Below, one piece after another: positions 3,358-55,763 of a stretch of DNA of 64,000 bases. The stretch is from a virus (taxonomy: Duplodnaviria; Heunggongvirae; Uroviricota; Caudoviricetes). A program made the position numbers and the translations under genes. A model generated the notes under the pieces. It ran no database searches and had not been told where the DNA came from. It was given only the letters and a program-made list of their open reading frames with translations. The stretch lies in the IMG/VR virus record IMGVR_UViG_3300022188_000009; one strand, written 5' to 3'. Each line of letters starts with the position of its first letter. The stretch's first letter is position 1.

Positions 3358-3552
3358 ATGAGTACATCTGAATGTATTAGATGTAAGAGACATGTTTCAA
3401 TTCATTATATAAATGATGATAATTTGTGTTGTGATTGTGCAAGTGGAAGTTTAGAATTTTTAAAACGTGATTTAAAGTTTGATATACTAAAAACAATACC
3501 TCCAGATCCATATAAAAAAGCTATAAAGGAGATAAAAAATGAAAGAGTTTAA
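3358..3552 (+). CDS. Small Cys-rich protein
   Basis: Motif CIRCKRH...CCDC. RBS aaaagggg. Confidence 0.4.
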   Translation: MSTSECIRCKRHVSIHYINDDNLCCDCASGSLEFLKRDLKFDILKTIPPDPYKKAIKEIKNERV

Positions 3553-3736
3553 AAAAGAATTAAGAGATTTAATTAACACACATAGTATTGATACTGTGTG
3601 TAATATATCAGATACCTTGTTGGCAGAACTAATTGTCGGTGCTATTAAAGGTATAAAAAAAACTAAAAGAAAGTGTTTTGGTTGCCATGAATGTGATCCA
3701 AAACAGCCCACGTGTACACATATTGAAAGGAGTTAA
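3539..3736 (+). CDS. Small protein with a C-terminal Cys cluster
   Basis: RBS aaggag. Motif CFGCHECDPKQPTC. Confidence 0.4.
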   Translation: MKEFKKELRDLINTHSIDTVCNISDTLLAELIVGAIKGIKKTKRKCFGCHECDPKQPTCTHIERS

Positions 3737-3737
3737 A

Positions 3738-4727
3738 ATGAAAATTCTACAGCATCTAAAAGTACCAACCGGTGATATACTGGTGGTAGAAGGTAAAAAA
3801 GGTAAATTGGAAATGTTATCTATAGGCGACTATGGACAGGGTCATAACCTAAAATGCGATGCTCTAGGAATATCAAGAGTGTTAGACAAAGTAGAACATA
3901 CTGATATACTGCCTTTAGAAGAAAAGTGGGTAATCACCATATCTACCCAATACGGCTGTTCAATGGGGTGTAAGTTTTGTGATGTTCCTAAAGTAGGGTC
4001 TGGTAAAAATGCTACCTATAAAGACCTTATAAAGCAAATATTGCAAGGCATCTATTTACACCCAGAAGTTAAATCAACAAAAAGACTCAATATTCATTAC
4101 GCTCGTATGGGTGAGCCTACGTGGAATCCTAATGTGTTGGATGCTACGAAATGGGCTAAGGAACATCTTGATCATGAATATAAGATTCATCCGGTGGTGT
4201 CTACTATGATGCCAAGAAAGAATGAATGGCTAAGAACCTTTATACACACTTGGATGAGAATAAAGAATCGGCTACTTGAAGGGAATGCAGGATTACAGTT
4301 AAGCATTAACTCGACCAATGACAAAGAAAGAGAAGTAATGTTTAATAATAATGCCTGCTCCTTTCCTGAGATAGCCAATATTATGAGAGGTGTTATTCCA
4401 AATGGAAGAAAGATTACTCTTAATTTTCCTATAGCCGGCTATGAGATAGATCCAAGCGTTTTACTGAACTTTTTTGATCCGGATGATTATATCATTAAAT
4501 TAACGCCCATGCATAAAACGTCGGCTGCTCTCAAAAATGATATTAAAACAGAAGGAGATTATACAGAGTATCATCCATATGAACAGCATGAAACAGAGTT
4601 AAAGGCTGCTGGATATGATGTTTTGGTCTTTATAGCATCAAAAGAAGAAGACTTGGGATTGATAACTTGTGGGAATGTTATCTTATCCGGGGCATTACCA
4701 AAAGTTGATTATAAACGAGTATTATAA
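3738..4727 (+). CDS. Radical SAM enzyme of the RlmN/Cfr family
   Basis: The segment VITISTQYGCSMGCKFC matches RlmN ATLCVSSQVGCALECKFC and includes the CxxxCxxC cluster. ARMGEPTWN aligns with RlmN MGMGEPLLN. LSINSTNDKERE aligns with RlmN ISLHAPNDEIRD. The C-terminal ITCGN aligns with RlmN AACGQ. The start is placed at the MKILQ Met, which has the RBS aaaggag. The residue equivalent to RlmN Cys118 is Thr. Confidence 0.7.
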   Translation: MKILQHLKVPTGDILVVEGKKGKLEMLSIGDYGQGHNLKCDALGISRVLDKVEHTDILPLEEKWVITISTQYGCSMGCKFCDVPKVGSGKNATYKDLIKQILQGIYLHPEVKSTKRLNIHYARMGEPTWNPNVLDATKWAKEHLDHEYKIHPVVSTMMPRKNEWLRTFIHTWMRIKNRLLEGNAGLQLSINSTNDKEREVMFNNNACSFPEIANIMRGVIPNGRKITLNFPIAGYEIDPSVLLNFFDPDDYIIKLTPMHKTSAALKNDIKTEGDYTEYHPYEQHETELKAAGYDVLVFIASKEEDLGLITCGNVILSGALPKVDYKRVL

Positions 4728-5020: not shown

Positions 5021-5365
5021 ATGCAAGAAGAATTGATAGGTTTAATTAACCATGGAAATGAATTAGTTTTGAGATTAGAATCTAGAACAGGAGAAAACAA
5101 TTATTCCAGCCCTGTTATAAGTGAAGATAGTGTAATCAAAATTATAGGAAAACTTAGATATAAAATAAAAACTGAAGATGATCTATATCATAAATTACGT
5201 ACTATTGTTAAAGTTATTCATTCTAATATGACTCATATTGATGATCTATCATTAAATGAAGTAGAAATTATATACATATGGGCATGTCATGTTGATAGAC
5301 TGTTAAAAGAATTAGATACTACCATTCTGGAGGATATGGTAGCTTTGAAAAAACTACTAAGTTAA
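5021..5365 (+). CDS. Hypothetical protein
   Basis: 114-codon ORF with the RBS agaggtg. Confidence 0.45.
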   Translation: MQEELIGLINHGNELVLRLESRTGENNYSSPVISEDSVIKIIGKLRYKIKTEDDLYHKLRTIVKVIHSNMTHIDDLSLNEVEIIYIWACHVDRLLKELDTTILEDMVALKKLLS

Positions 5366-5387
5366 TCAATAATTTAAAGGTGGTTTT

Positions 5388-5621
5388 ATGAAACATTTTA
5401 TTCTGGCAATGATTGTGCTGTTCGTATTTCAGATGACAGTTATTGGAGATAGTTTGAAGTTCGATCCTTTGTATAATAACAAAGCTAAATGTTTTATGTC
5501 TTTGAACTATGAGGGTATTGAAGGGCCGGCTCCTAAATACTGGAAAATCAAAGATGCTGTTTATAAAGAAGGAATTCTCAAACGTGATTTGATTTTTGTA
5601 CGTATTGATGGTAATAAATGA
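5388..5621 (+). CDS. Small secreted protein
   Basis: N-terminal signal peptide MKHFILAMIVLFVFQMTVIG. Confidence 0.45.
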   Translation: MKHFILAMIVLFVFQMTVIGDSLKFDPLYNNKAKCFMSLNYEGIEGPAPKYWKIKDAVYKEGILKRDLIFVRIDGNK

Positions 5622-5636
5622 TATAAACGACGTAAG

Positions 5637-6095
5637 ATGTTGACTATTGCAGCCGATAAACGTATATCTTGTTTTGAGAGTAATACTGTTGATGCTGCCT
5701 GGTTATGTCCTGAGTACATTAAAGAAATTATGCCTGTAGTTAAAGCTCCTACGGAAAAGAAAGTATTTTATGTTTACTTTGATTTTAACAAGTCTAATAT
5801 TAAAGACGAACAGGTGCCTATACTGAAAGCTGCTATTGACTATGCTAAGCTTGGTGGTACTGTAGATATCAAACTGGAAACAAGTTGTGATTTTCGTGGT
5901 TCTGTTGCATATAACTTTAAGCTTGGAGAAGACCGTGCTGATGCTGTAGCATTATGGTTTGCTGATAACGGATTAGATTTACCTATCTCTATTGATAATT
6001 ATGGTGAAGAGCGGTCTATGATTCGTTCTTTAGTAAATGGTATCTTTTGTCCTGATTGTTGGGCTGATCGTAAAGTAAAGGTTACTGTTGAATAG
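5637..6095 (+). CDS. Hypothetical protein
   Basis: 152-codon ORF, followed by a strong terminator. Confidence 0.45.
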   Translation: MLTIAADKRISCFESNTVDAAWLCPEYIKEIMPVVKAPTEKKVFYVYFDFNKSNIKDEQVPILKAAIDYAKLGGTVDIKLETSCDFRGSVAYNFKLGEDRADAVALWFADNGLDLPISIDNYGEERSMIRSLVNGIFCPDCWADRKVKVTVE

Positions 6096-6732: not shown

Positions 6733-7251
6733 ATGAATAAAAATTTACAAAGTGCAAGGAAAAATAAAAATGATGAATTTATTAAGATAAAAGATCATCC
6801 AAGATATTCTATTTCAAAAAGTGGTATAGTATGCAACGATAAAACAGGAAAGGTTTTAAAAAATATAAAACTTAAAACAGGATATTTACGGGTAACTTTA
6901 TCTAGTAGAAAACAAGTTTTAGTACATAGATTGGTTGCAGAAGCTTTTATTCCTAATCCATATAATTTACCTTGTGTTAATCATATAGATGAAAATCCTG
7001 AAAATAATAATAACTATGGTAACTTAGAATGGGTTACTCACAAACAAAATATAAGACATTCATGTAAAGGTTGCAAAAGTTATTTGTTTAATAAGAAAGA
7101 ATATTATGAAACAAACAGTTGTACCAGATCGGATTTCAAAAGAATATGTAATAGGCATGTATGGAATATAGTAGATTTTACAGAATTAGATAGTGGAGAA
7201 AAACGGTATTCAAATAAAAAATATTATTATATTGAAAGAGGCCCCCAATGA
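6733..7251 (+). CDS. HNH homing endonuclease
   Basis: The motif VNHIDENPENNNNYGNLEWVTHKQN is the classic H-N-H core of phage homing endonucleases. Confidence 0.7.
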   Translation: MNKNLQSARKNKNDEFIKIKDHPRYSISKSGIVCNDKTGKVLKNIKLKTGYLRVTLSSRKQVLVHRLVAEAFIPNPYNLPCVNHIDENPENNNNYGNLEWVTHKQNIRHSCKGCKSYLFNKKEYYETNSCTRSDFKRICNRHVWNIVDFTELDSGEKRYSNKKYYYIERGPQ

Positions 7252-8282
7252 ACAGTAACCTACAAAGAGCTAAAAAAGCAAAACAGGATGAATTCTACAC
7301 ACAGCTTACAGACATTGAAAAAGAATTAAAACATTACCGAGAGTATTTTAAAGGAAAAAACGTATTTTGTAATTGTGATGACCCAAGTATTAGTGGATTT
7401 TTTCACTATTTTTCATATAATTTTGAATATTTAGGTCTAAAAAAACTAATTACTACCTGTTACAAGAATCAACAGATGAATTTATTCAGTAAACGTGATA
7501 TAGAAAAAGCGATTTATCTTGAGTATGAAGGTACTAAAAATGACGGTAATGTACCAGCTCTTGAAGACATCGGTATTAAACCGTTAAAAGGTAATGGAGA
7601 TTTTCGTTCTGAAGAATGTATAGAGATTCTTAAAGGAGCTGATGTTGTTGTTACTAATCCACCATTTTCATTATTTAGAGAGTATTTGGCCCAATTAATT
7701 AAGTATGAAAAGAAATTTCTGATTGTTGGCCACATGAATGCTTTAACCTACAAAGAGATTTTTCCTTTAATAAAAAACAATAAAATTTGGTTAGGCACCA
7801 ATAATAATCAAAGTTTTGTATTTGGATCACCTTATAAAAATACTCTTGAAAATAACAAAAAATTTTGCAAACAAAAAGGTTATAATGGGGATAAATACAT
7901 TAAAGTGCCAGGAATAAATTGGTATACAAATCTTCTACATAAAAAGAGAAACAAAAAACTTACATTATTTGAAAATTATTATGGGCATGAAGAAAACTAT
8001 CCAAAATATGATAATTACGATGCTATTGAAGTCAGTAGAGTAGTAAATATCCCTGGAGACTTTAATGGTGTAATGGGTGTACCAATAACTTTTTTAGACA
8101 AACATAATCCTGAACAGTTTGAGATTATATGGCAGGCTGCAGGAAATACACGGGCAACTGCTCCAAAAGAAATTTTAGATAGATTAAATTATCAGCAACA
8201 TATCGAAGATAGGGGTGGTTGTGCGATTATTAAAGGAAAAAGGACTTATGCAAGAATATTAATTAAAAGGAAAATAATGTAA
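7248..8282 (+). CDS. Putative N6-adenine DNA methyltransferase
   Basis: VVVTNPPFSL matches catalytic motif IV, (D/N)PP(Y/F). The start overlaps the stop of the upstream HNH gene. Confidence 0.5.
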   Translation: MNSNLQRAKKAKQDEFYTQLTDIEKELKHYREYFKGKNVFCNCDDPSISGFFHYFSYNFEYLGLKKLITTCYKNQQMNLFSKRDIEKAIYLEYEGTKNDGNVPALEDIGIKPLKGNGDFRSEECIEILKGADVVVTNPPFSLFREYLAQLIKYEKKFLIVGHMNALTYKEIFPLIKNNKIWLGTNNNQSFVFGSPYKNTLENNKKFCKQKGYNGDKYIKVPGINWYTNLLHKKRNKKLTLFENYYGHEENYPKYDNYDAIEVSRVVNIPGDFNGVMGVPITFLDKHNPEQFEIIWQAAGNTRATAPKEILDRLNYQQHIEDRGGCAIIKGKRTYARILIKRKIM

Positions 8283-9394
8283 TGAAAATAGAATTACGCG
8301 AAATACCAATTCAAGAAGTAGTACAATATAGTAAACATTTAAAGAAACGTCAAGGTTACAAAGATAATGCTGAAGAAGGTGTATATGGTATGAATGGTAG
8401 ATTAAATATTCGTCCTGCATATCAAAGAGAATTTATTTATAAAGATCTTCAAAGAAATGCAGTAATTAACACTGTCACACACGACTTCCCATTAAATGTT
8501 CTTTACTGGGCAGTAAATAAAGACGGAAGTTATGAGGTGTTAGATGGGCAACAACGCCTCATAAGCATAGGTCAATATGTAAACAGTGATTTTAGTTTAA
8601 ACCATAAATTTTTTCACAACTTAACCGACGATGAACGTAATCAAATATTAGATTATAAACTGATGGTTTATTTATGTGAAGGAAGAGATAATGAAAAATT
8701 AGATTGGTTTAAAATTATTAATATAGCAGGTGAAAAATTAACTGATCAAGAATTACGTAATGCTATTTATACTGGATCGTGGTTACATGATGCAAAAAGT
8801 TATTTCAGTAAAACAGGTTGTCCTGCATATAAAATAGCCTCGGATTACGTTAAAGGCTCGCCCATACGCCAGAACTACCTAGAAACTGTTTTGAAATGGG
8901 TAAGTGAAAATAATATTGAAGACTACATGTCAAAAAATCAGCATAACAAGGATGCCGTTGAGCTATGGAATTATTTTGAAAAAAGTATTTCATGGTTTAA
9001 AAATATATTTATTAAATACAGAAAAGAAATGAAAGGGTTACCAATCGGAAGTTTATACAATGATTTTAGTGACAATGAGTACCCTCTGCCCGATCAAATA
9101 GAAAAAACCGTCAGTGAATTAATGATAAACGATGAAGTGACTAAAAAATCAGGTATATACCCATACATACTTACTGATGATGAAAAATATTTAAACATTC
9201 GTTCATTTGATAATAATCAAAAACGTGAAGCATATGAAAAACAGGCCGGTATATGTGTACACTGTAAAAAACATTTTGAAATAAATGATACGGAAGCCGA
9301 TCATATAACTCCATGGTCTAAGGGAGGAAAAACTACTCCTGAAAATTGTCAAATATTATGCCTATACTGTAACCGTACAAAAAGTTCCAAATAA
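8282..9394 (+). CDS. DUF262 (ParB-like NTPase) plus C-terminal HNH nuclease, a GmrSD-like architecture
   Basis: The N-terminus carries the LDGQQRL motif that is the signature of DUF262. The C-terminus, CVHCKK...ADHITPWSKGG...NCQILCLYCNRTK, is a canonical HNH. Confidence 0.6.
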   Translation: MKIELREIPIQEVVQYSKHLKKRQGYKDNAEEGVYGMNGRLNIRPAYQREFIYKDLQRNAVINTVTHDFPLNVLYWAVNKDGSYEVLDGQQRLISIGQYVNSDFSLNHKFFHNLTDDERNQILDYKLMVYLCEGRDNEKLDWFKIINIAGEKLTDQELRNAIYTGSWLHDAKSYFSKTGCPAYKIASDYVKGSPIRQNYLETVLKWVSENNIEDYMSKNQHNKDAVELWNYFEKSISWFKNIFIKYRKEMKGLPIGSLYNDFSDNEYPLPDQIEKTVSELMINDEVTKKSGIYPYILTDDEKYLNIRSFDNNQKREAYEKQAGICVHCKKHFEINDTEADHITPWSKGGKTTPENCQILCLYCNRTKSSK

Positions 9395-17135: not shown

Positions 17136-17165
17136 GGGGCTGGAAACAGTCCCAAACTTTTATTT
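17136..17165 (+). terminator. Rho-independent terminator
   Basis: Stem ggggctg, loop gaaa, stem cagtccc, followed by aaacttttattt. Confidence 0.55.
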
Positions 17166-17180
17166 AAAAAAGGAGGATGT

Positions 17181-17633
17181 ATGGCTATATTGGATATTGT
17201 TACAATTGAAAATGATGATAAAGGTGTACTGAGAAAGATAGCCGAACGAGTTGAACCGAAAGAAATTTCAGAATTTCAACAATTAATTGACGATATGCTG
17301 GAGACAACACTCCATTTTGGAGCTATAGGGTTATCAGCTCCTCAAGTAGGCGTAAGTAAACAGATATTTGTCCTTGAGGAGGGCACTGTATGCATTAACC
17401 CCGGTAGTAAAATGGGCAGTGGTAAAATAACATCACATGCTGAAGGTTGTTTATCTATTAAAGAAAAACAGTTTGATGTAAAACGTATTCGTAATGTTAT
17501 TATACGTTGTTTGGGTCGTAATGGGCAGCCTCAAAAGCTTGCTCCTAGAAAGAAGCTTTACTCTATTGCTATTCAGCACGAAATCGACCACCTCAATGGA
17601 GTATTAATTTGTGATAAGGGAAAGGTAAGATAG
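17181..17633 (+). CDS. def: Peptide deformylase
   Basis: All three PDF motifs are present: GLSAPQVG (motif 1), EGCLS (motif 2) and HEIDHLNG (motif 3). RBS aaaggagg. Confidence 0.85.
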   Translation: MAILDIVTIENDDKGVLRKIAERVEPKEISEFQQLIDDMLETTLHFGAIGLSAPQVGVSKQIFVLEEGTVCINPGSKMGSGKITSHAEGCLSIKEKQFDVKRIRNVIIRCLGRNGQPQKLAPRKKLYSIAIQHEIDHLNGVLICDKGKVR

Positions 17634-17678
17634 ATAGTATAGATTAATCATCCTTAATATAAAAAGGTTGGGCATAAT

Positions 17679-19043
17679 ATGCATATCAAAGATCAGGAAA
17701 GAAATGGATTTAGAAGAACAGCATCTCCCTCAGAAACTATCAAAACAGTCAAAGACGGGTTACAACGTTTAGAATTGAAAGAAGAAATCAAAATAATGAA
17801 GTCTTCAGACCATTTATGGTCAGTACGTTTAGAAATACCCACTCTTCGTGCTGGTGTAAATGGTAAAGGTATAAGTGAACAACTTGCTATTGCTTCAGCT
17901 TATGGAGAAATGGCTGAACGTCTTTCTGCTGGTATGGAAATAGGTATTGAAGTTGGTCCATTTCGTCAGTTATTTGGAACAACAGGTGATGCTATGGCTA
18001 AAGTTACACTTTATAAATATATGAAAGGATACCGCTGGACTCATCAAGATAGTATACAAAATAGTGTAGCAGTTGAAGACTTTTGTAAACGTAACCCGTT
18101 TACTAATGAAGAATACCATAATATGAAAATGAATAGTGAGTTACTAAAACATTGGGTTCCTGGTTATTCTTTAGTACAAAAAAAGAATATTTATATACCG
18201 ATTCTTTTTACTAAATGGATATCATCTACCAACGGGTTAGCAGCAGGTAATACTATAGAAGAGGCTATAGTACAGGGTTGTTGCGAGATATTTGAACGTG
18301 ATGCCATGATAGACTTTTTACTAGGAAAAACTCCCCTTGAGAATTGTCCAGTAATTAATCTTACTACAATTGATAACCCCATTATTAAACAACATATTGA
18401 ATTTTTTCATAATAACCATGTTGAAGTTGTAATTCGTGATATAGGTAACAGTATTTATCCAGTATATACTATTCTAACATATAATCATGATATGCCTGAA
18501 AACTATATAGGCTATAATAATATTAAAGCCGGCAGTTCTTTTGATTCAAATGAAGCAATTATGCGTTGTTTTACAGAACGTATGCAGGGTACAGACTTTG
18601 AATTTGAAGAATCTCAAGGGCCTCGACCAGAAGGACTTAATCATGATCAATATATGTCTGCATTTTTCAAAGGAATATGTCCCATGGATCTTAAGACTCA
18701 CGGGGTAGGTACTTCAGTACCATATAAATCTTATTCAGAAACGAATATTGTGACTGAGATAAATAATTGTGTTGAAATTGCAAAGAAACTTGACACAGAT
18801 ATTATTGTAGTAGATCACACACATCCTATAATAAATTTTCCCACCGCCCGCGTAATTATGCCAGGAGTATCGGATTTTATGAAGTGGTGGGCACCTAGTA
18901 CACTAACCTCACAATTTGTTGGTAATCTTCAGCCTGAAGAAGATAAATATGAGAAAAAGTTAATTAGTGTCTTGGAATCTTTCTTTAAAAAGAAACCCCG
19001 TAAACAAGATCATGGTGGGGTTATAACATGTACAGAGGACTGA
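17679..19043 (+). CDS. YcaO-domain protein
   Basis: The segment GVNGKGISEQLAIASAYGEMAERL matches the YcaO signature, which is a GKG ATP-binding motif followed by a Ser/Ala-x-x-E-x-x-ER motif. Confidence 0.7.
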   Translation: MHIKDQERNGFRRTASPSETIKTVKDGLQRLELKEEIKIMKSSDHLWSVRLEIPTLRAGVNGKGISEQLAIASAYGEMAERLSAGMEIGIEVGPFRQLFGTTGDAMAKVTLYKYMKGYRWTHQDSIQNSVAVEDFCKRNPFTNEEYHNMKMNSELLKHWVPGYSLVQKKNIYIPILFTKWISSTNGLAAGNTIEEAIVQGCCEIFERDAMIDFLLGKTPLENCPVINLTTIDNPIIKQHIEFFHNNHVEVVIRDIGNSIYPVYTILTYNHDMPENYIGYNNIKAGSSFDSNEAIMRCFTERMQGTDFEFEESQGPRPEGLNHDQYMSAFFKGICPMDLKTHGVGTSVPYKSYSETNIVTEINNCVEIAKKLDTDIIVVDHTHPIINFPTARVIMPGVSDFMKWWAPSTLTSQFVGNLQPEEDKYEKKLISVLESFFKKKPRKQDHGGVITCTED

Positions 19044-19044
19044 T

Positions 19045-19464
19045 ATGGAAGAACAATGGATTGGCCCAGTTCGGCCGTTATTTAACTTAGAAGAGGAACC
19101 ACCTAAGAATAAAAGAGTTGAAAGACTTGTGGCTGGTACCAACAGTAATGGTATGGTGATAGATGTATCGAGACAAGGTTTAGAAATAAATGGGTACTAT
19201 GTGTCTTTTAATGACGGAGACACCCGTTATTCAATATTACGAGAACCTGTAGTTATCCCTTGGGATGAATTGGACAAAATGAAGAGTCGTATTTTTAAAG
19301 CAAAGAAACGTGTTGCTGAAATGGATCGAATAGAAGAAAAAGTCGATAAAAAGTATCTTAAAACATTACCAATTGTTGTAATTAATGGCGGAAAATACTA
19401 TATAGACCCCGAAAAGAGAGAAAGAAGGTCTGTGGACAAATCACAAGAAGTCTGGAAATTTTAA
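19045..19464 (+). CDS. Hypothetical protein
   Basis: 139-codon ORF. Its start overlaps the stop of the YcaO gene. Confidence 0.5.
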   Translation: MEEQWIGPVRPLFNLEEEPPKNKRVERLVAGTNSNGMVIDVSRQGLEINGYYVSFNDGDTRYSILREPVVIPWDELDKMKSRIFKAKKRVAEMDRIEEKVDKKYLKTLPIVVINGGKYYIDPEKRERRSVDKSQEVWKF

Positions 19465-19490: not shown

Positions 19491-20351
19491 ATGAAATTTA
19501 TAAAAAAATTATATAATAATATTATTTGGAAAATGATTTATCATAATAAACCAATGTCTGAAAGCTTTATCAGAAGGTTTAAAGATAATGTTAATTGGTG
19601 GCAAATTTCTAGTTATCAAACTTTATCTGAAGACTTTATCAGAGAATTCAAAGACAGAGTCTTTTGGGATGAAATTTCTTATAATCAAATTTTATCAGAA
19701 GACCTCATAAGGGAGTTTTCCGATAAAGTAAATTGGGGTTGGATTTACTATAAACAAGCTTTACCTGAAGCTTTTATCAAAGAATTCTGGCACAAGGGAA
19801 ATTGGGCTATAATCTCACATAAACAAGTCTTATCAGAAGACTTTATAAGAGAATTTCAGGATAAAATTGATTGGCCAGGAATATCTCATTATCAGAATTT
19901 ATCAGAAGATTTTATAAGAGAGTTTCAGGATAAAGTTAACTGGAAAGCGATATCTAGCCACCAAATTTTATCAAAAAACTTCATTCATGAATTCAAAGAT
20001 GAAATTGATGTCGAAGTACAGTTTGTAAAACACCATAAGAAATTAATTTATAAAGAAAAATGTAAACTGGTCAAAAAGTACGCAGAAGAATACGGCCTGA
20101 AATATGACAATAAACATCTGTATGCTTACCGTAAACACGACAAGTTTGGCAGGGGTATGCACAGTAATACCGTTTACAAAAAGGGAGTTTATAGAGACTG
20201 GCATTGCGATCTGGAGTCAGGTTTTGGAGCTTCTTTCGGATTAGGAGTATTTCCGCAGGGTAACACACCTGTTCGTGTGAAGATTAAGGATATCGGTTGC
20301 TGGGCTGACGATTCAGATAAACTGAGGGTTTGGGAATTCGAAGTATTATAA
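19491..20351 (+). CDS. Tandem-repeat protein with about 6.5 copies of a 23-aa repeat (xQxLSEDFIREFxDKVNWxxISx)
   Basis: The repeats are visible at both the protein and the DNA level. Confidence 0.55.
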   Translation: MKFIKKLYNNIIWKMIYHNKPMSESFIRRFKDNVNWWQISSYQTLSEDFIREFKDRVFWDEISYNQILSEDLIREFSDKVNWGWIYYKQALPEAFIKEFWHKGNWAIISHKQVLSEDFIREFQDKIDWPGISHYQNLSEDFIREFQDKVNWKAISSHQILSKNFIHEFKDEIDVEVQFVKHHKKLIYKEKCKLVKKYAEEYGLKYDNKHLYAYRKHDKFGRGMHSNTVYKKGVYRDWHCDLESGFGASFGLGVFPQGNTPVRVKIKDIGCWADDSDKLRVWEFEVL

Positions 20352-20383
20352 AAAAATCTTTAAATAAAGTCTGGAGGCTACAA

Positions 20384-20848
20384 ATGGAATTTGTAAAAGG
20401 TGATATATTAGACGCAAAACATGGTATTATAGGACATCAGGTCAATTGTCGTATGGTAATGGGTGCCGGATTGGCTAAACAAATTCGTGATCAATACCCT
20501 ATAGTATTTACTGAATACAATGAAGTAATGGGTGCTGCTCCTATAGAGAATCGATTGGGTAAATGTCAGGTAGTACAAACTGGGCCCGATTTGTACGTAG
20601 CAAATCTGTTCGGTCAAATGGATTATTTTCCAAAAAACATACGTCATACTGACTATAACGCCTTATCTATGGCATTACATGGATTAAATTCCTGGCGAAA
20701 AATTAATTGGCCAGATGATCCATCAGTTATGCCTATTTATTTACCATCAGGATTGGGTTCCGGACTCGCTGGAGGAGATTGGATAATTGTAAAAGAATTA
20801 ATTGCAACAGTAATTTCTGACGCGATTATAGTTAGATATAACAAATAA
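20384..20848 (+). CDS. Macro-domain (ADP-ribose binding/processing) protein
   Basis: MEFVKGDILDAKHGIIGHQVNCRMVMGAGLAKQI matches the macro-domain N-terminal motifs (GDIT and NAAN..L.GGGV). RBS ggagg. Confidence 0.5.
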   Translation: MEFVKGDILDAKHGIIGHQVNCRMVMGAGLAKQIRDQYPIVFTEYNEVMGAAPIENRLGKCQVVQTGPDLYVANLFGQMDYFPKNIRHTDYNALSMALHGLNSWRKINWPDDPSVMPIYLPSGLGSGLAGGDWIIVKELIATVISDAIIVRYNK

Positions 20849-20849
20849 A

Positions 20850-21407
20850 ATGTATCAAGGGGGTGACCAAGTGTCAAGTTATTTTACCGAAATATATAAG
20901 GTTAACGCGTATGGAAAAAGCTCATCAAAACGAAAAACGTTATCAATAAAGTGTAAATATTGTGGAAGAACCTATATGTATACTTCAAATAAACATAAAC
21001 CTAAGAAATGTAGTATTTGTAACCATGTTTACGGCACCCCAATACCAATTAATACTATCATACCAGAAGGGGCTAAACTCTCTACACATAATCAAATACG
21101 TTTAGTGTGTGATCATTGTGGATATAGGGCAATAGTTTGGGTTAAGAAGGGTATTGCTAAGATTCCTTGTCCTAAATGTGAGATAGATGGGTTTGGAGTA
21201 AAAATTTATAAGTTGAACCCAGAAGGAGCTTGTGATACATATGAAGTATGGGAAGAAGAGTTTGTAAGTATATTTTCTAAAAAACCTAAAATTGCCACTA
21301 GACCAAAGAAGAAATTTTGTATTTGTAATGAATGTGGTTACAATAATTCTTTTATTATCAAACAACCAACTAAATGTAAAATTTGTAAAAGGATACTTCT
21401 TCCATGA
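20850..21407 (+). CDS. Multi-zinc-ribbon protein
   Basis: About eight CxxC pairs. Confidence 0.5.
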   Translation: MYQGGDQVSSYFTEIYKVNAYGKSSSKRKTLSIKCKYCGRTYMYTSNKHKPKKCSICNHVYGTPIPINTIIPEGAKLSTHNQIRLVCDHCGYRAIVWVKKGIAKIPCPKCEIDGFGVKIYKLNPEGACDTYEVWEEEFVSIFSKKPKIATRPKKKFCICNECGYNNSFIIKQPTKCKICKRILLP

Positions 21408-21610
21408 TAAAAATAAGAATAATTTTTCCACGAAATGCTACATTTTCAGAATTTCATTGGTGGTGCCCTGTATGTGATAAAGAAACTTATTTTTATTCAA
21501 TGCCGCCAACAAAATGCTTAAATTGTCAATACAACGCTCTACCAAATCTACGTTATTTGAACGAATGTAGAGATTACAGAATAAATTACCACAAAAAATG
21601 GAAGACATAA
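21404..21610 (+). CDS. Small zinc-ribbon protein, member of a paralog family
   Basis: Motif WWCPVCDK...CLNCQY. Confidence 0.45.
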   Translation: MIKIRIIFPRNATFSEFHWWCPVCDKETYFYSMPPTKCLNCQYNALPNLRYLNECRDYRINYHKKWKT

Positions 21611-21982: not shown

Positions 21983-22457
21983 AAAAAAGAGCCACTATAT
22001 AAGAGTGGCAACATTTAAAATAGATGAAGTATTACCATTTGTTTTTACAAGAGAGATTCGACATACTCTTCGTGCACAAGGTTTTCGTTATGATAGTAAT
22101 GAGTGGAAGACTGCTAGCCGACGTGGATACCAGATTTATTTGAACGGTAAAGATAAAACAATTAAGGTTTCCATGGGCTCACACCGATATCAACTGTTTG
22201 CTCTTAAAGGTATTAAATGTACAAGATGTGGTATTGAAGGTGAATATTTCGCACTTGAGCGTGATTTTAAAACCAGCCCTGATAAATTTCACTTCAATCT
22301 ATATGGTAATGATAGTAATGGACAAGAAATAATGATAACCAAAGATCACGTTATTCCTCGATCAAAAGGGGGAAAAAATAAGTTGAATAATTATCAACCT
22401 ATGTGCTTTAGGTGTAACCAGAAAAAGGCGGATAAATTATATTATGTTAAAGATTAA
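21960..22457 (+). CDS. HNH endonuclease
   Basis: The motif ITKDHVIPRSKGGKNKLNNYQPMCFRCNQKK is an HNH core. Confidence 0.65.
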   Translation: MIMGQKGKKKSHYIRVATFKIDEVLPFVFTREIRHTLRAQGFRYDSNEWKTASRRGYQIYLNGKDKTIKVSMGSHRYQLFALKGIKCTRCGIEGEYFALERDFKTSPDKFHFNLYGNDSNGQEIMITKDHVIPRSKGGKNKLNNYQPMCFRCNQKKADKLYYVKD

Positions 22458-22662
22458 AGTTGAAGCCTGTAGGTATAGTTGTGTCAACTTTAGGTGTCCT
22501 AAATGCAAGTCATATGATATAGTATATATTAATATGCCAGATACTTGTTGGAATTGTGGGAGTAAATATCAATTTGATCTTGCAACATTAATTAAAAATA
22601 AAAATGAACGCACATTCTTTCACTTTAATAAAGGGGAAACGTCGGGTTATTATCATGATTAA
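22444..22662 (+). CDS. Small zinc-ribbon protein, member of a paralog family
   Basis: Motif CPKCKS...CWNCG. Confidence 0.45.
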   Translation: MLKIKVEACRYSCVNFRCPKCKSYDIVYINMPDTCWNCGSKYQFDLATLIKNKNERTFFHFNKGETSGYYHD

Positions 22663-22906: not shown

Positions 22907-23128
22907 ATGTTTAAAGTTAAGATACATAAAAACAATGAGTATAACAATATGAAACATTGGCAATGCCCACACTGTCTTACAAAAGAAGTTGCAATAACAA
23001 TATTTCCTGAAAGCTGTCATAATTGTGGTGAAACATTACCGTTTCTTTTTGATTTATTGTCACGAGTATCTGCTAGAGCTGCATATCATTTTGCAAAAAG
23101 GTATCAAAGTAATTCAAATTTAATTTAG
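22907..23128 (+). CDS. Small zinc-ribbon protein, member of a paralog family
   Basis: Motif WQCPHC...CHNCGE. Confidence 0.45.
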   Translation: MFKVKIHKNNEYNNMKHWQCPHCLTKEVAITIFPESCHNCGETLPFLFDLLSRVSARAAYHFAKRYQSNSNLI

Positions 23129-23145
23129 GGTACTAAGGACAAATT

Positions 23146-23358
23146 ATGATTAAAATGAAATTAAATGGTAGATTTTCTGGCAGCAATATCCCCATTAAGA
23201 ATTATGTGCGGTGTCCACAATGTTTAACAGAGAATTTTTTTCATAATTGGGCACCACGGTATTGTGAAAGTTGTGGTTTTTCTTTTGGAAATATAATTTT
23301 ACTAATAGAGAGCATACGTGTTCGTAAATACTACTACAAAAAAGGAGAAATAAATTAA
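23146..23358 (+). CDS. Small zinc-ribbon protein, member of a paralog family
   Basis: Motif CPQCLT...CESCGF. Confidence 0.45.
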   Translation: MIKMKLNGRFSGSNIPIKNYVRCPQCLTENFFHNWAPRYCESCGFSFGNIILLIESIRVRKYYYKKGEIN

Positions 23359-33814: not shown

Positions 33815-34738
33815 ATGGAAAAGTGTTTCACAATTGGATGTGATCCTGAATTCTTTCTTCGCGAAAAACAAAGCGGAAAATTAATTTCAGCTATTCCACA
33901 CATTAAAGGTACCAAAACAGAACCACAATTATTGCCAAAGGGAGGTAATATCCAACATGATAATGTTGCTGTAGAAATTGCAACAGATCCAGCAAAATCT
34001 ATGGAAATGTTTATACAAAATATCAAAATGACTTTGTCAGAAGCAGTAAGAACTTTACCTGCAGATACAGAGATTATTGCGATACCTTCAGCGAATTTTG
34101 ATAAAGACCAGCTTGAGCATCCAGAAGCACAGGTATTCGGCTGTGATCCTGATTATGATGCTTGGGAAATTCGTGAAAATGAAAAACCACATGCAGGAGA
34201 TAATACTTTTAGATCTTGTGGTGCCCATATCCATCTTGGTACTGACGGAAAAGATGAAAATTCTTTCCTACTTGATTTTGAAGGTAAGCTGACCACTGTA
34301 AAAATTATGGATTGTGTACATGGAATTATTTCTACTGTACTTGATTCCGGTAAAGAAGCTATCGACCGTCGTAAATTATACGGTAAACCTGGGGCTCATA
34401 GGCCAAAGGAATATGGCGTAGAATATCGAGTATTATCCAATTACTGGTTAAAAAGTCCAGTAACTGTATCAATGATGTACCATTTGTCAAAAGATGTATT
34501 GACTATTGTACGTGAAGGTAAAGCTGAAGAATTAATCAATGCAATGGGTGAAAGTCAGGTAAAGGCTACTATTGAGGACGGTAATGCAGATGATGCCATG
34601 AAGATGATTGAAACAAACCTATTACCCATCCTCAGTGAAGACTCAGTTTATTATTTTAATGAAGTTTTGGCAAAAATTAAAGCAAACGATATGAATTTCC
34701 ACATGGAGTGGGAACTATACAAGGAGGCAGTCGCATGA
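33815..34738 (+). CDS. Carboxylate-amine ligase of the GCS2 / glutamine-synthetase-like (amidoligase) family, copy 1
   Basis: The N-terminal TIGCDPEFFLRE matches the GCS2 lGvEeEfflvd motif. CGAHIHLGT matches the GCS2 HvHvgv motif. RBS aaggtaa. Confidence 0.6.
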   Translation: MEKCFTIGCDPEFFLREKQSGKLISAIPHIKGTKTEPQLLPKGGNIQHDNVAVEIATDPAKSMEMFIQNIKMTLSEAVRTLPADTEIIAIPSANFDKDQLEHPEAQVFGCDPDYDAWEIRENEKPHAGDNTFRSCGAHIHLGTDGKDENSFLLDFEGKLTTVKIMDCVHGIISTVLDSGKEAIDRRKLYGKPGAHRPKEYGVEYRVLSNYWLKSPVTVSMMYHLSKDVLTIVREGKAEELINAMGESQVKATIEDGNADDAMKMIETNLLPILSEDSVYYFNEVLAKIKANDMNFHMEWELYKEAVA

Positions 34739-35502
34739 AAATTGGTATACCGGTTTCTTTCAGTAACACACAGTATTATATTAACCAGGCCTATGTAAAA
34801 TATGTAGCTGATGCTGGCTATGAGCCAGTATTGCTTTCTCCGGAGTCATCAATAAAGACAGCTGTTAGCCTCATTGACGGTCTTATAATGCCCGGAGGTA
34901 TTGATGTTGATCCTATATACTATGGATATGACAACTTTTCATCTTATGCAGTTGACCCGCTAAAGGATGAATTTGAGCGGGAATTGTTTCATTCCGCCCG
35001 TGAAGCTAAATTGCCTATACTTGGTATTTGTCGTGGTTTCCAACTTATTATATATGAGTATATGGAGCACGATAACAACCTAATTGAGTTCATGGAGTTT
35101 AAACCACATATTTCTGGGCATAACCAGGTTGATGGCCAAAGATTACCACGTACTATTTCCCAGCACTTTGTTGATTATAACCCATCTACTCTTTATAATG
35201 CAAGCAGTACCAAAGCAGACTCAATGCCCGTAAATAGTATGCATCATCAATGCTTGGTTGTTGATTTTAAACGCAATGGGATTATCGGAATTCGTAATTT
35301 TCGTATGGGGGCTTGGACTACCCGTGGTATAAAGGTTAAAACAGTAAAAGACAGTAATCCAATGGTATGTGAAGCATTTCGTATAAGTAAATGGGGTGCA
35401 CCGATTTTGGCTGTACAGTGGCATCCTGAAGAAATAAAGGATTACGAGTTACTTCACCAATTCTTTGGTAATGTTAAAGCTGATACTATGGAGACTACGT
35501 AA
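34735..35502 (+). CDS. Class-I glutamine amidotransferase-like protein (peptidase C26 / gamma-glutamyl hydrolase PuuD-like), copy 1
   Basis: MKIGIPV...YVKYVADAGYEPVLL...DGLIMPGGIDVDP...LPILGICRGFQLI...HHQ...WHPE matches the C26 family, with a Cys-His-Glu catalytic triad. RBS aaggagg. Confidence 0.7.
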   Translation: MKIGIPVSFSNTQYYINQAYVKYVADAGYEPVLLSPESSIKTAVSLIDGLIMPGGIDVDPIYYGYDNFSSYAVDPLKDEFERELFHSAREAKLPILGICRGFQLIIYEYMEHDNNLIEFMEFKPHISGHNQVDGQRLPRTISQHFVDYNPSTLYNASSTKADSMPVNSMHHQCLVVDFKRNGIIGIRNFRMGAWTTRGIKVKTVKDSNPMVCEAFRISKWGAPILAVQWHPEEIKDYELLHQFFGNVKADTMETT

Positions 35503-53756: not shown

Positions 53757-55763
53757 ATGTGTGGAGTTGTAAGTGCATTAGCATACGGTGAGTTTGAGAC
53801 AAATAGAGAGGAAAAGACTCGACAAGAGTCCATTATTTTCCTTGTTTCTGAATTACTCCAACTCACGCAATCACGAGGCAAAGACGCCACAGGTATTGCA
53901 ACTATGTTCGCAAATTGTGACTATATGGGGCTGAAGATGGGTGTTTCGGCTCAAGAGTTTGTTGGACGATTTGGTGGAACGGAGAAGGATTATGACGGTT
54001 ATTTGGATATATGGCGGAAGAAAAAACATCCAGCTAAGATTGTTATTGGACACTGTCGTAAACCATCGGTAGGAGGCAACGCCGGTGCAGACGACAATAA
54101 TAACAATCACCCAATTAAAGTAGGTGATATTATTGGAGTACATAACGGTACATTAGATAACCATGAAAACATATTCAAAAATTTGGATTGTACTCCTGAA
54201 TCTAACGTGGATAGTGAAGCTATCTTCAGGCTGCTACACCATTTTACTGATAATGGTACAAAACCTTTCACAACTGAAAGTATACTTGAGACCTGTAAAC
54301 GTATGGGTGGTACTTACTCATGTTTAACATTTAGTGGTAATAACCCATATCAAATGGCCGCATTTCGCGATGGTCGGCCTCTGGAAGCATGTATAATACG
54401 TCCACTCAAATTATTACTTATCGCAAGTGATAAGGATTTTCTGAAAGCAGCAGTCTTCCGTTATAACAAAATGGCTCATCTATATCAGACTGGGGCTGTT
54501 AAATTTCTATCATTAAAGAAAGACGATATAGACCTTGAGACGTTAAAAGATGACTGTATGTATCTTTTTGATGTGCAGGATGAAATAAATTCAAAAACAC
54601 AGATTAAAGATCTGTATATTTCTGAAAAGGTACCACGTGCAGATAAAATTTGGAAAAAATCCGGTGGATCTACAACTATGTGGCATCGTAATAACCAGAA
54701 TCGTAATACAGTGGTAAAAAAAACAACAGTGACAACATCCAAACCGGACAACCAGTCTGGGACTCATGGAAAAGAAAGTACAACTGGGGATAATAAAACA
54801 AAACGGTTGGGTATGGTTTGGAATCGAAGTAATTATAAATATGAATCCATTCATGATGTGGATAAAGCGGATAAACATGGAAGTACAGAAATTGATATAG
54901 ATAATGGGGAAATAATTGATATTTCTAATAATGTAATAATTCAAGAAGGCGAAAAAAAAATAGACAAATCGATCTTACAAGTAGAAAATGATATTACACA
55001 TCCTCTTGAAGAGTCAGATAATCCTGTAGATAATCTTATTTCTGACCCAGCTAAAATTAATGAAATTGCTATTTCTCAAATTGAGGAGATACAGAATAAA
55101 ACTAACTCTTCAGACACAAACAACACCTCTGAGGATGTTAATTTACCCAAAAAAGCCCTTCTACTTGATTATGTAAAGCAACATAAGAAAATCGAGATAG
55201 ATGCATCGACTTACCCTGATGTTGTAGAAAAGGCCCAAAAAGCTACAAAAGAAGAAGAAACCTTCAGCAGCAACGACGAGCTTGCTGATGCTATTGAAGT
55301 AACAAATGTAAATATTATGAAAAATATGTCTACATACTCTTTAGCTAATCGGATCAAGGCGTTCTTCTTTAGAAAAGGCTGGTATGCTGGGTATATTACA
55401 CGCATGAAAGAAGAAGAGAGTGTAATGGTTGGGGGTGATTACTCACGTAAAATGTTGATAAGATCTCGTAATAAAGCTCTTAATGCTCAGAAAACCATTA
55501 AAATGATGAAAATAATGGTAAAGATTTACGATAATATAACTGGACAATGCTTGCTTACGCCTACTTATGGCAACGTTTTTGGCAAACAACAGTCCCATAT
55601 CATCCAGGATTGTAAAATTAATCGAGCAGTAACTGAAATTTTTGATAAAAATGAACATATCAGACCCAACTCTGTGCTGAATCTATTTAGTGAAGGAGAT
55701 ATGAAAAATAGTTCATTCTTAAAACGTATTACATCTGCGATATCACACAAATGCAGTAATTAG
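53757..55763 (+). CDS. Class-II (Ntn) glutamine amidotransferase, copy 2, with an approximately 440-aa C-terminal extension
   Basis: N-terminal MCGVVSA. Also ATGIATMF, HCRKPSVGGN...NNHP and VDSEAIF. RBS ggaggtaa. Confidence 0.6.
   Translation: MCGVVSALAYGEFETNREEKTRQESIIFLVSELLQLTQSRGKDATGIATMFANCDYMGLKMGVSAQEFVGRFGGTEKDYDGYLDIWRKKKHPAKIVIGHCRKPSVGGNAGADDNNNNHPIKVGDIIGVHNGTLDNHENIFKNLDCTPESNVDSEAIFRLLHHFTDNGTKPFTTESILETCKRMGGTYSCLTFSGNNPYQMAAFRDGRPLEACIIRPLKLLLIASDKDFLKAAVFRYNKMAHLYQTGAVKFLSLKKDDIDLETLKDDCMYLFDVQDEINSKTQIKDLYISEKVPRADKIWKKSGGSTTMWHRNNQNRNTVVKKTTVTTSKPDNQSGTHGKESTTGDNKTKRLGMVWNRSNYKYESIHDVDKADKHGSTEIDIDNGEIIDISNNVIIQEGEKKIDKSILQVENDITHPLEESDNPVDNLISDPAKINEIAISQIEEIQNKTNSSDTNNTSEDVNLPKKALLLDYVKQHKKIEIDASTYPDVVEKAQKATKEEETFSSNDELADAIEVTNVNIMKNMSTYSLANRIKAFFFRKGWYAGYITRMKEEESVMVGGDYSRKMLIRSRNKALNAQKTIKMMKIMVKIYDNITGQCLLTPTYGNVFGKQQSHIIQDCKINRAVTEIFDKNEHIRPNSVLNLFSEGDMKNSSFLKRITSAISHKCSN

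Follow-up and report, generated by a model that had tools for sequence, protein, structure and literature searches.

What would a phage do with a YcaO enzyme, and on which polypeptide would such an enzyme act? The question is raised by IMG/VR virus record IMGVR_UViG_3300022188_000009 (Caudoviricetes), of which we analysed a stretch of 64,000 nucleotides (hereafter the window) that carries a gene for a peptide deformylase (PDF) followed by a gene for a YcaO-domain protein. YcaO enzymes, which use ATP to activate a backbone amide in a peptide or protein, are known from peptide natural-product pathways, and the initial annotation of this locus had suggested that the phage modifies a ribosomal or phage peptide after translation. 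We found that the encoded YcaO represents a new branch, specific to viruses, within a known superfamily, and that the next gene downstream encodes a previously unnoticed protein of 139 residues, P139, which is its most plausible substrate.

The PDF and YcaO genes are both real and complete, with Pfam matches and intact motifs, and the coordinates of their open reading frames (ORFs) give the 45-nt spacer that had been noted between them. The YcaO gene (17679..19043, + strand) encodes a stand-alone enzyme of 454 aa, which we place in a phage-specific clade on the basis of Pfam and NCBIfam matches, homologues, a tree and an AlphaFold2 model. The hidden Markov model of the Pfam YcaO family (PF02624) matched with E=6.4e-48 and 164.2 bits (cut-off 25.7) over profile positions 1-324 of 325, and NCBIfam TIGR00702, the 'YcaO-type kinase domain', was passed as well (83.6 versus 75.65). 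Residues 62-64 read GKG and residues 70-82 read AIASAYGEMAERL, just as quoted in the initial annotation.

Three putative nucleotide-binding motifs can be recognized in this protein. The predicted first ATP/Mg-binding motif spans residues 62-83 (17862..17927, + strand; G-K-G ... S73-A-Y-G-E77-M-A-E80-R81-L-S), the second residues 203-207 (18285..18299, + strand; E-I-F-E-R), and the third nucleotide-binding motif residues 296-303 (18564..18587, + strand; R-C-F-T-E-R-M-Q). Within them and at one further position, S73, E77, E80, R81, N191, E203, E206, R207, R296, E300 and Q303 are invariant in 35 clade members, whose identity to the window YcaO is only 42-58%. E77, E80, E203, E206 and E300 are the glutamates presumed to bind ATP, conservation of which had been proposed as a check on the enzyme. 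The invariant ligands align with S71, E75, E78, N187, E199, E202, R203, R286, E290 and Q293 of E. coli YcaO (4Q84). The AlphaFold2 model (mean pLDDT 89.4, pTM 0.89) is confident except for the last 14 residues and comprises a single domain, after which come a short helix and a disordered tail. Since the family match is strong, the ATP/Mg ligands are invariant and the model is confident, the YcaO domain is not degenerate, a possibility that had been raised earlier. The best explanation of these data is a catalytically competent, stand-alone enzyme, with ATP/Mg binding predicted from residue conservation.

The NCBIfam subfamily models all scored below their cut-offs: 89.9 versus 365 for the McrA-type model (TIGR03266), 83.3 versus 700 for the uL16-type model (NF040716) and 76.4 versus 219 for the SagD-type model (TIGR03604). 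A Pro-rich (PxPxP) C terminus is a mark of the azoline-forming cyclodehydratases of thiazole/oxazole-modified microcin (TOMM) pathways; the phage YcaO ends in ...SFFKKKPRKQDHGGVITCTED and has no PxPxP motif. The median isoelectric point (pI) in the phage clade is 6.05, with a range of 5.2-7.6. The + strand ORFs of 50 aa or more within the 64-kb window were examined for partner families, and none of the E1/ThiF, Ocin-ThiF, TfuA, ThiS or dehydrogenase families was found there. Neither a protease or transporter partner for the YcaO, nor a recognition element (RRE) of the kind used for RiPPs (peptides that ribosomes synthesize and that are modified after translation), was found among these ORFs, and the earlier description of the enzyme as a stand-alone YcaO is in agreement with these scans. 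By these comparisons, the phage YcaO is a member of the YcaO superfamily, yet it fails the tested defining features of every characterised subfamily.

The presence of a YcaO had been called unusual for a phage, and this impression was strengthened by our searches. Among 50,697 GenBank phage records there was no genuine YcaO, the sole match being host ycaO DNA inside an E. coli prophage record, and the window YcaO had no match to any PHROG family. We found no description of a phage-encoded YcaO in the literature, and the word is missing from a comparative overview of 224 jumbo phages. Large metagenome protein collections contained about 70 cluster-level relatives at 41-61% identity, with the next block of sequences at 33-37%, and an exhaustive profile search yielded 495 YcaO representatives at E<=1e-30. 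In a neighbour-joining tree with E. coli YcaO as the root, the relatives at 41-61% and 33-37% identity separated into two sister groups, one of phages and one of Desulfobacterota. Patterns specific to the phage clade had no match in 185,579 GTDB genomes. Judged by these searches, the clade of ~70 protein clusters is apparently confined to phages and previously unreported in the searchable literature, and the window would contain what is apparently the first intact YcaO peptide-backbone-modifying enzyme described in a virus.

Gene order gives a clue to the partner of this enzyme. The start codon of the P139 gene (19045..19464, + strand) lies 1 nt past the YcaO stop codon, and homologues, alignments and gene order mark its product as the likely, candidate YcaO substrate. 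The P139 homologues form 105 clusters, nearly all of 130-150 aa. The family had no match in Pfam, PHROG, NCBIfam or PADLOC, no homologues were found in GenBank phages, and P139 showed no similarity to the TPR, RRE, E1 or TfuA folds and families. We also considered P139 as a relative of DUF6955, a neighbour of the YcaO of sulfate reducers, and rejected this since hhalign showed no relation. Wherever the sequence of a phage-clade locus extends far enough, P139 is encoded directly 3' of YcaO, including loci in which YcaO identity has dropped to 34-37%, and the distance between the YcaO stop and the P139 start is -4 to +2 nt in 12 of the 13 lineages and 18 nt in the remaining one. Insertions between YcaO and P139 do not occur at all, though they are present between PDF and YcaO as well as between P139 and the next conserved gene; the latter interval holds a 286-aa repeat protein in the window and a 351-aa ORF in loci L023 and L024. 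As judged from this gene order, P139 and not PDF is the conserved partner of YcaO.

P139 is not restricted to phages with a YcaO. Six more-divergent members of the P139 family were checked, and all six are encoded in syntenic phage loci that lack both YcaO and PDF. The P139 of L006, which is linked to a YcaO, is 58% identical to that of the YcaO-less locus L177, and at most 47% identical to any other YcaO-linked P139. Because the YcaO-less proteins interleave in this way with the YcaO-linked ones, repeated loss of YcaO, or possibly repeated gain, is indicated, with P139 retained throughout. Persistence without the enzyme would be surprising in a dedicated subunit but expected of an optionally modified protein; the retention of P139 in YcaO-less relatives therefore makes it most likely a substrate and not a cofactor.

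The comparison of the two groups also points to the part of P139 that might contact the enzyme. In the 13 YcaO-linked sequences 35 positions are invariant, and six of these (R10, F13, E26, R27, D40 and P72) are relaxed in the six YcaO-less ones. The relaxed positions are concentrated in residues 1-45 (5 of 10 conserved positions, versus 1 of 25 in residues 46-139; Fisher p=0.004), which means that the N-terminal 45 residues are less conserved in phages without YcaO. An AlphaFold2 model of P139 (pLDDT 85.6) shows a lower-confidence tail (residues 1-25), a small beta-rich domain whose first hairpin is made up of residues 26-41, and then a helix and another beta domain, which is basic. The extra constraint in YcaO-linked proteins therefore falls on a flexible N-terminal segment, of a kind able to enter the YcaO active site. 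Within it, residues 6-27 (19060..19125, + strand), which comprise the tail motif I6..R10-P11-x-F13 and, with E26-R27, the beginning of strand 1, form a candidate interaction or modification site, proposed from the differential conservation between the 13 and the 6 sequences. As a sign of interaction with YcaO, this difference is suggestive only. In the alignment, P139 has no conserved Cys, Ser or Thr, and with a median pI of 8.7 the family is moderately basic.

The reading that we favour, and to which we would give somewhat less than an even chance, is that YcaO and P139 form a two-gene module in which the enzyme carries out an ATP-dependent backbone modification of P139, most likely a thioamidation. 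All YcaOs studied share one mechanism, with the nucleophile determining the product (PMC5589413; PMC13063428), and the two known protein substrates, McrA in methanogens and uL16 in Pseudomonadota, are both thioamidated (PMC13063428). Given the observed gene arrangement, PDF, YcaO and P139 may be transcribed together, and translation of P139 may be coupled to that of YcaO. YcaO would bind ATP and Mg via its conserved Ser/Glu/Arg motifs, and the flexible N-terminal segment and first hairpin of P139 (residues ~6-45) would, to go by the differential conservation, dock on the enzyme. As established for the family, a nucleophile would then attack one backbone carbonyl, the oxyanion would be phosphorylated, and the phosphate would depart. 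This nucleophile would most likely be free sulfide, which would leave a backbone thioamide with no need for a TfuA helper.

Of these steps, the chemistry calls for the most caution: thioamidation of its substrate by the phage YcaO is possible, and distinctly short of probable. It is suggested by exclusion and by habitat. TfuA is dispensable in organisms of sulfide-rich habitats (PMC13063428; PMC5589413), and the sister clade of the phage YcaO sits in sulfate reducers and shares metagenomes with the phage clade, which we counted toward thioamidation. The best solved relatives of the phage enzyme are the two stand-alone YcaOs that thioamidate proteins, MJ1094 (E=1.1e-31) and E. coli YcaO (E=2.7e-29), and an N-terminal element is common to all three. 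Azoline formation is argued against by the lack of conserved Cys, Ser or Thr in P139, the lack of partner proteins, the low SagD score and the lack of a Pro-rich C terminus. The variable distance between Met1 and the conserved motif in P139 homologues makes an N-terminal amidine unlikely. The thioamide-type reaction put forward in the initial annotation remains the best guess, now on a protein, and the partner on which it would take place, P139, had gone unmentioned there.

Several observations weigh against this reading. Both the substrate and the chemistry of the phage YcaO are inferred from sequence and genomic context. The whole region is syntenic across the phage family, and the adjacency of YcaO and P139 could be an inherited order after a single acquisition; moreover, tight gene spacing is common in phages. 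In some phages P139 functions without YcaO. The test of differential conservation compares 13 with 6 sequences that are phylogenetically non-independent. No sulfur-transfer gene was seen among the ORFs scanned in the window, and the host and the chemistry of the habitat are known only indirectly. The subfamily scores with the McrA (90 bits), E. coli (83 bits) and SagD (76 bits) models do not discriminate between chemistries, and a choice between thioamide and azoline by similarity scores was rejected for that reason. The thioamide-forming enzyme of M. kandleri is the weakest match in the Protein Data Bank (PDB), so similarity does not track function. Finally, the phage YcaO lacks a marked acidity and P139 is no more than moderately basic, unlike the pair formed by E. 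coli YcaO and uL16.

The upstream gene has a different history. The window PDF (17181..17633, + strand; 150 aa) has intact catalytic motifs, as indicated by Pfam, PHROG and a motif alignment. It matches Pfam Pep_deformylase (PF01327) with E=2.8e-33 and 115 bits (cut-off 22.8) and PHROG 2890, 'peptide deformylase', at 2.2e-26, and falls just under the NCBIfam equivalog cut-offs (98.5 versus 103.95). The motifs G50-L-x-A-P-Q55, E88-G-C-L-S92 and Q132-H-E-x-D-H137 are invariant in an alignment of 25 phage-clade sequences, so that the PDF-defining motifs GxGxAAxQ, EGCLS and HExxH are represented in the clade by GLSAPQ, EGCLS and QHEIDH. PDF had rightly been described as a known phage gene, with homologues in 103 GenBank phage records. 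The window PDF belongs to a phage-specific clade of ~55 clusters (50-76% identity) whose members share contigs with YcaO, and from this distribution the clade is limited to the present phage family and co-inherited with YcaO. Homologues of PDF gave no clue to the host.

PDF was found in 10 of 12 YcaO-positive lineages and in none of 6 YcaO-negative ones; for an earlier count of 9/11 versus 0/6, Fisher's test gave p=0.002, with the lineages not being independent. Because the presence and absence of PDF follows that of YcaO, the two genes seem to travel together, perhaps as a cassette. That PDF is directly followed by YcaO, as initially described, holds in a subgroup of these phages. Elsewhere a HAD_SAK_2 gene lies between them (in L022 at 2152-2937, and in L178/L179, L178:4459-5268) or a membrane-protein ORF separates them (L023/L024), and PDF is missing from two lineages that have YcaO and P139. 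In L006, a HAD_SAK_2 gene (an RNA-repair-associated HAD; 5274-6041) is located directly 5' of YcaO and there is no PDF. The simplest reading is that PDF is a general translation-support gene merely linked to YcaO, and that YcaO can be explained without it.

The joint occurrence of PDF and YcaO is one argument for the alternative that we take most seriously, although we consider it unlikely, namely that YcaO modifies a host protein such as ribosomal protein uL16 or a translation factor, as part of a translation-takeover set with PDF, and that the adjacency of P139 is inherited order. The initial annotation had drawn an analogy with E. coli YcaO acting with RimO on ribosomal protein S12; this analogy is outdated, as uL16 has now been shown to be the direct thioamidation target, modified beside the peptidyl-transferase centre (PMC13063428). 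A translational role would fit with the other translation and RNA genes of the phage, which include, besides PDF, a tRNA, a CCA-adding enzyme, an RNA ligase and a radical SAM protein with an RlmN/Cfr-like core, and also with the occurrence of P139 in phages without YcaO. The features of a uL16-type enzyme, however, all failed in the phage YcaO (83 versus 700 bits, no C-terminal TPR domain, a pI of ~6 versus 4.4), and the correlation between PDF and YcaO could reflect one cassette gain and a few losses. Modification of a host protein also leaves unexplained why no gene ever intervenes between YcaO and P139 and why the N terminus of P139 is tighter when YcaO is present. A closer association with PDF can be imagined, in which the two enzymes cooperate chemically: deformylation would free the alpha-amine of P139 for an N-terminal amidine ring, as in bottromycin and klebsazolicin, whose amidine-forming YcaOs need a free alpha-amine. 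This would account for the co-occurrence of PDF and YcaO and for the YcaO-dependent constraint in the N-terminal part of P139. The interval between Met1 and the I6/R10 motif varies by up to 6 residues, however, which is a misfit for a ring whose size is fixed; PDF is missing from two YcaO lineages, the PDF of the host would suffice, and PDF is common in phages without YcaO. We regard such cooperation as very improbable.

Two further possibilities keep P139 or the enzyme within better-known schemes. P139 might be a specificity or scaffolding subunit, comparable to a TPR domain, an E1-like protein or TfuA, that recruits a third protein as the true substrate. Many YcaOs require a partner protein (PMC5589413). 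A separate TPR protein often adjoins the YcaO of sulfate reducers, E. coli YcaO has a fused TPR domain, and P139 occupies just this downstream position in a translationally coupled arrangement. Its retention in at least six related phages without YcaO would be odd for a dedicated subunit, and it is unlike the TPR, RRE, E1 or TfuA folds and families, so that we think this role improbable. Somewhat more improbable still is a RiPP-type system, in which a small peptide, for instance a Cys-containing downstream ORF of ~70 aa or an unannotated short ORF, would acquire azolines or amidines through YcaO. Ribosomal peptides are the targets of most characterised YcaOs, and in all lineages small Cys-containing paralogues are arrayed in tandem 2-4 kb downstream. 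These small ORFs encode CPxC...CxxC zinc ribbons with conserved Cys spacing and without a leader/core organisation, which is why they were rejected as RiPP precursors; a Cys/Ser/Thr-rich precursor peptide, for which a search had been proposed earlier, was not found among the nearby small Cys ORFs. The absence from the 64-kb window of an E1/Ocin-ThiF partner, dehydrogenase, protease or transporter, the SagD-type score of 76 bits against a cut-off of 219 and the lack of a C-terminal PxPxP also speak against a RiPP system.

The remainder of the window is that of a phage. Its sizeable ORFs are all on one strand, the G+C content is ~32%, and several of the proteins match PHROG families. Encoded are a T7 gp5.9-like RecBCD inhibitor, a superinfection-immunity protein, an SLT lysozyme, a T4-type RNA ligase and the CCA-adding enzyme, as well as RuvB, helicases and weak RNA-polymerase fragments; there is one tRNA-Gln, and tRNA was the only result of an Rfam scan. 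No capsid or terminase gene was identified in the 64-kb window. Only one related viral contig, of 141.5 kb, is present in IMG/VR, and other relatives were found on contigs of 247-330 kb. The 10 kb around the genes had no DNA match among the 50,697 GenBank phage records, and two large window proteins had no match in GenBank phages. The phage, an uncultivated one from sediment, is from an undescribed, new family.

Upstream of PDF, a terminator-like hairpin with a T-run (17136..17160, + strand; GGGGCTGG-AAAC-AGTCCC then AAACTTTTAT) is located between an SPFH/Band_7 gene and PDF, and no such hairpin occurs between PDF, YcaO and P139, a scan that is statistically uninformative: the promoter and terminator sites counted were no more numerous than in shuffled sequence, and the pre-PDF hairpin alone was suggestively placed. 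This hairpin may weakly mark the start of a PDF-YcaO-P139 transcription unit, and together with the lack of hairpins between the genes it is compatible with co-transcription. Downstream of P139, in the window lineage only, lies the gene for the 286-aa repeat protein (19491..20351, + strand; phrog_3532, 6e-59), which has repeats of ~29 aa of the type 'LSEDFIREFxDKVxW' and is probably outside the YcaO-P139 module. It precedes the gene for a DarG-like macrodomain protein (20330..20848, + strand; phrog_335 7.5e-37, NCBIfam DarG 1.8e-10, PADLOC DarG 6.6e-12), which is kept one gene after P139 in at least 10 lineages. The macrodomain protein probably has a separate, ADP-ribose-related function, and may counter an ADP-ribosylating defence. 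In L020 (344-2124), the one locus of this kind, the YcaO frame is broken by a stop codon (344-649, 686-1672), P139 is absent and the macrodomain gene is directly next. The YcaO-less relative L175 has an IS605 OrfB/TnpB (Cas12f-like) gene (3427-4491) on the opposite strand, two genes 3' of P139.

The ~70-aa zinc-ribbon proteins, which have a conserved R..Y tail, are arranged in tandem arrays (window 21404-21610, 22444-22659, 22907-23125 and 23146-23355; L023:8238-10446), with up to 9 copies per locus and 58 members in 10 lineages of the phage family. The radical SAM protein (3678..4727; CxxxCxxC; phrog_24834 at 1e-111) had initially been joined to the function of YcaO. It is encoded 13 kb away and resembles the RlmN/Cfr rRNA methyltransferases in its core only (39 bits versus cut-offs of 290-530); we saw no link between the two. 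A homologue is found ~10 kb upstream of YcaO in L004. Elsewhere in the window (33815-35502 and 53757-55763), phiEco32-type COOH-NH2 ligases occur with class-I/C26 glutamine amidotransferase, GGACT and GNAT domains, and these genes are predicted to be a second small-molecule or peptide modification set in the phage. Finally, the gene for an EcoRI-type adenine methyltransferase (E=3e-133) is immediately followed by one for a GmrSD-N/HNH nuclease (7248-9394).

The cellular sister clade deserves a description of its own. Its YcaOs are 436 aa long and uncharacterised, and originate from Desulfobacterales, Desulfatiglandales and other Thermodesulfobacteriota metagenome-assembled genomes (MAGs), including SEEP-SRB2, Eth-SRB1 and NaphS2. 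Genes of the phage and sulfate-reducer clades co-occur in metagenomes Ga0272444, Ga0180436 and Ga0164311. The Desulfobacterota loci (L041:6771-9576 and 145 others, L026-L170) often have YcaO beside dsrA-dsrB-dsrD and a dsrN-like gene, an arrangement on which we found no literature, and in 38 of the 67 loci of at least 9 kb YcaO is within 5 kb of dsrA. Also encoded repeatedly nearby are DUF6955 (110 aa, divergent), a TPR protein of 207 aa, a methyltransferase resembling PrmA and an ATPase of the PP-loop type. The next-nearest YcaOs (P0347-P0398) are also uncharacterised; they are ~600 aa long and have a C-terminal extension with CxxxCxxxC, and some are named from Heimdallarchaeota and Patescibacteria MAGs.

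A phage-confined YcaO clade would extend YcaO chemistry to viruses, and the proposed modification of P139, if true, would represent the first self-contained two-gene module of a YcaO enzyme and a folded-protein substrate. According to the authors of the 2026 study on uL16, YcaO enzymes have other protein substrates that are yet to be discovered (PMC13063428). P139 could be a third class of such substrate after McrA and uL16, and carry the first viral protein-backbone modification, in the form of an N-terminal thioamide or another amide-derived group; this more specific proposition we put forward as doubtful. Modification of P139 by YcaO is unusually directly testable because the candidate substrate is encoded 1 nt downstream of the enzyme, and the related phages with P139 and without YcaO are natural controls. 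The YcaO of sulfate reducers, often beside dsrAB, offers a second lead, which concerns the modification of proteins in an enzyme system that is key to sulfur cycling.

How does the phage system compare with those already known? The window PDF has all the catalytic motifs of phage-encoded PDFs such as those of cyanophages and vibriophages, and differs from them in forming its own clade, restricted to this phage family and co-inherited with YcaO. The Desulfobacterota YcaOs resemble the phage enzyme in identity (33-37%), in being of the same length, in a C-terminal helix ending in SFF and in their sister position in the tree. They are cellular, however, lack P139 and PDF within a distance of 5 kb at the 144 loci compared, and have dsrABD, DUF6955, a TPR protein and PrmA as neighbours, unlike the phage. 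The TOMM cyclodehydratases (SagD/BalhD; LynD, TruD, MusD) share the YcaO domain and its ATP-binding motifs, with PDB matches of 1e-22 to 1e-24, whereas the phage has no fused or separate E1-like/Ocin-ThiF partner, RRE or dehydrogenase in its 64-kb window, no Cys/Ser/Thr-rich precursor and no PxPxP C terminus, and scores 76 bits against the required 219.

The enzymes that modify proteins are more similar. The methanogen YcaO that acts on a glycine of McrA (TIGR03266; M. jannaschii MJ1094, PDB 6PE3/6PEU) is of similar size, is the best solved relative and corresponds to the top NCBIfam subfamily match, and MJ1094 stems from an organism that lives in a sulfidic habitat and lacks TfuA (PMC5589413). 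Enzymes of this type are found in mcr-bearing archaea, usually beside tfuA, while the phage YcaO is viral, with no McrA and no TfuA in the window. E. coli YcaO, the thioamidase of uL16 Met82 (PDB 4Q84-4Q86; NF040716), stands alone without E1 or TfuA and acts on a folded protein, as proposed for the phage YcaO; it has the ATP/Mg motifs and the N-terminal element in common with it and is its second-best solved relative. It differs in its length of 586 aa with a C-terminal TPR domain of ~150 residues, where the phage YcaO has 454 aa and no TPR, and the alignment of the two stops near E. coli residue 393. The pI of E. coli YcaO is ~4.4, matching the basic uL16 (PMC13063428), compared with ~6 for the phage YcaO, and uL16 is a ribosomal protein encoded elsewhere, whereas the candidate substrate P139 is the product of the adjacent gene. 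From these comparisons, the phage YcaO seems functionally to resemble most closely the two protein-modifying stand-alone YcaOs, from which it is set apart by its viral origin and by the position of the gene for its candidate substrate, adjacent to its own.

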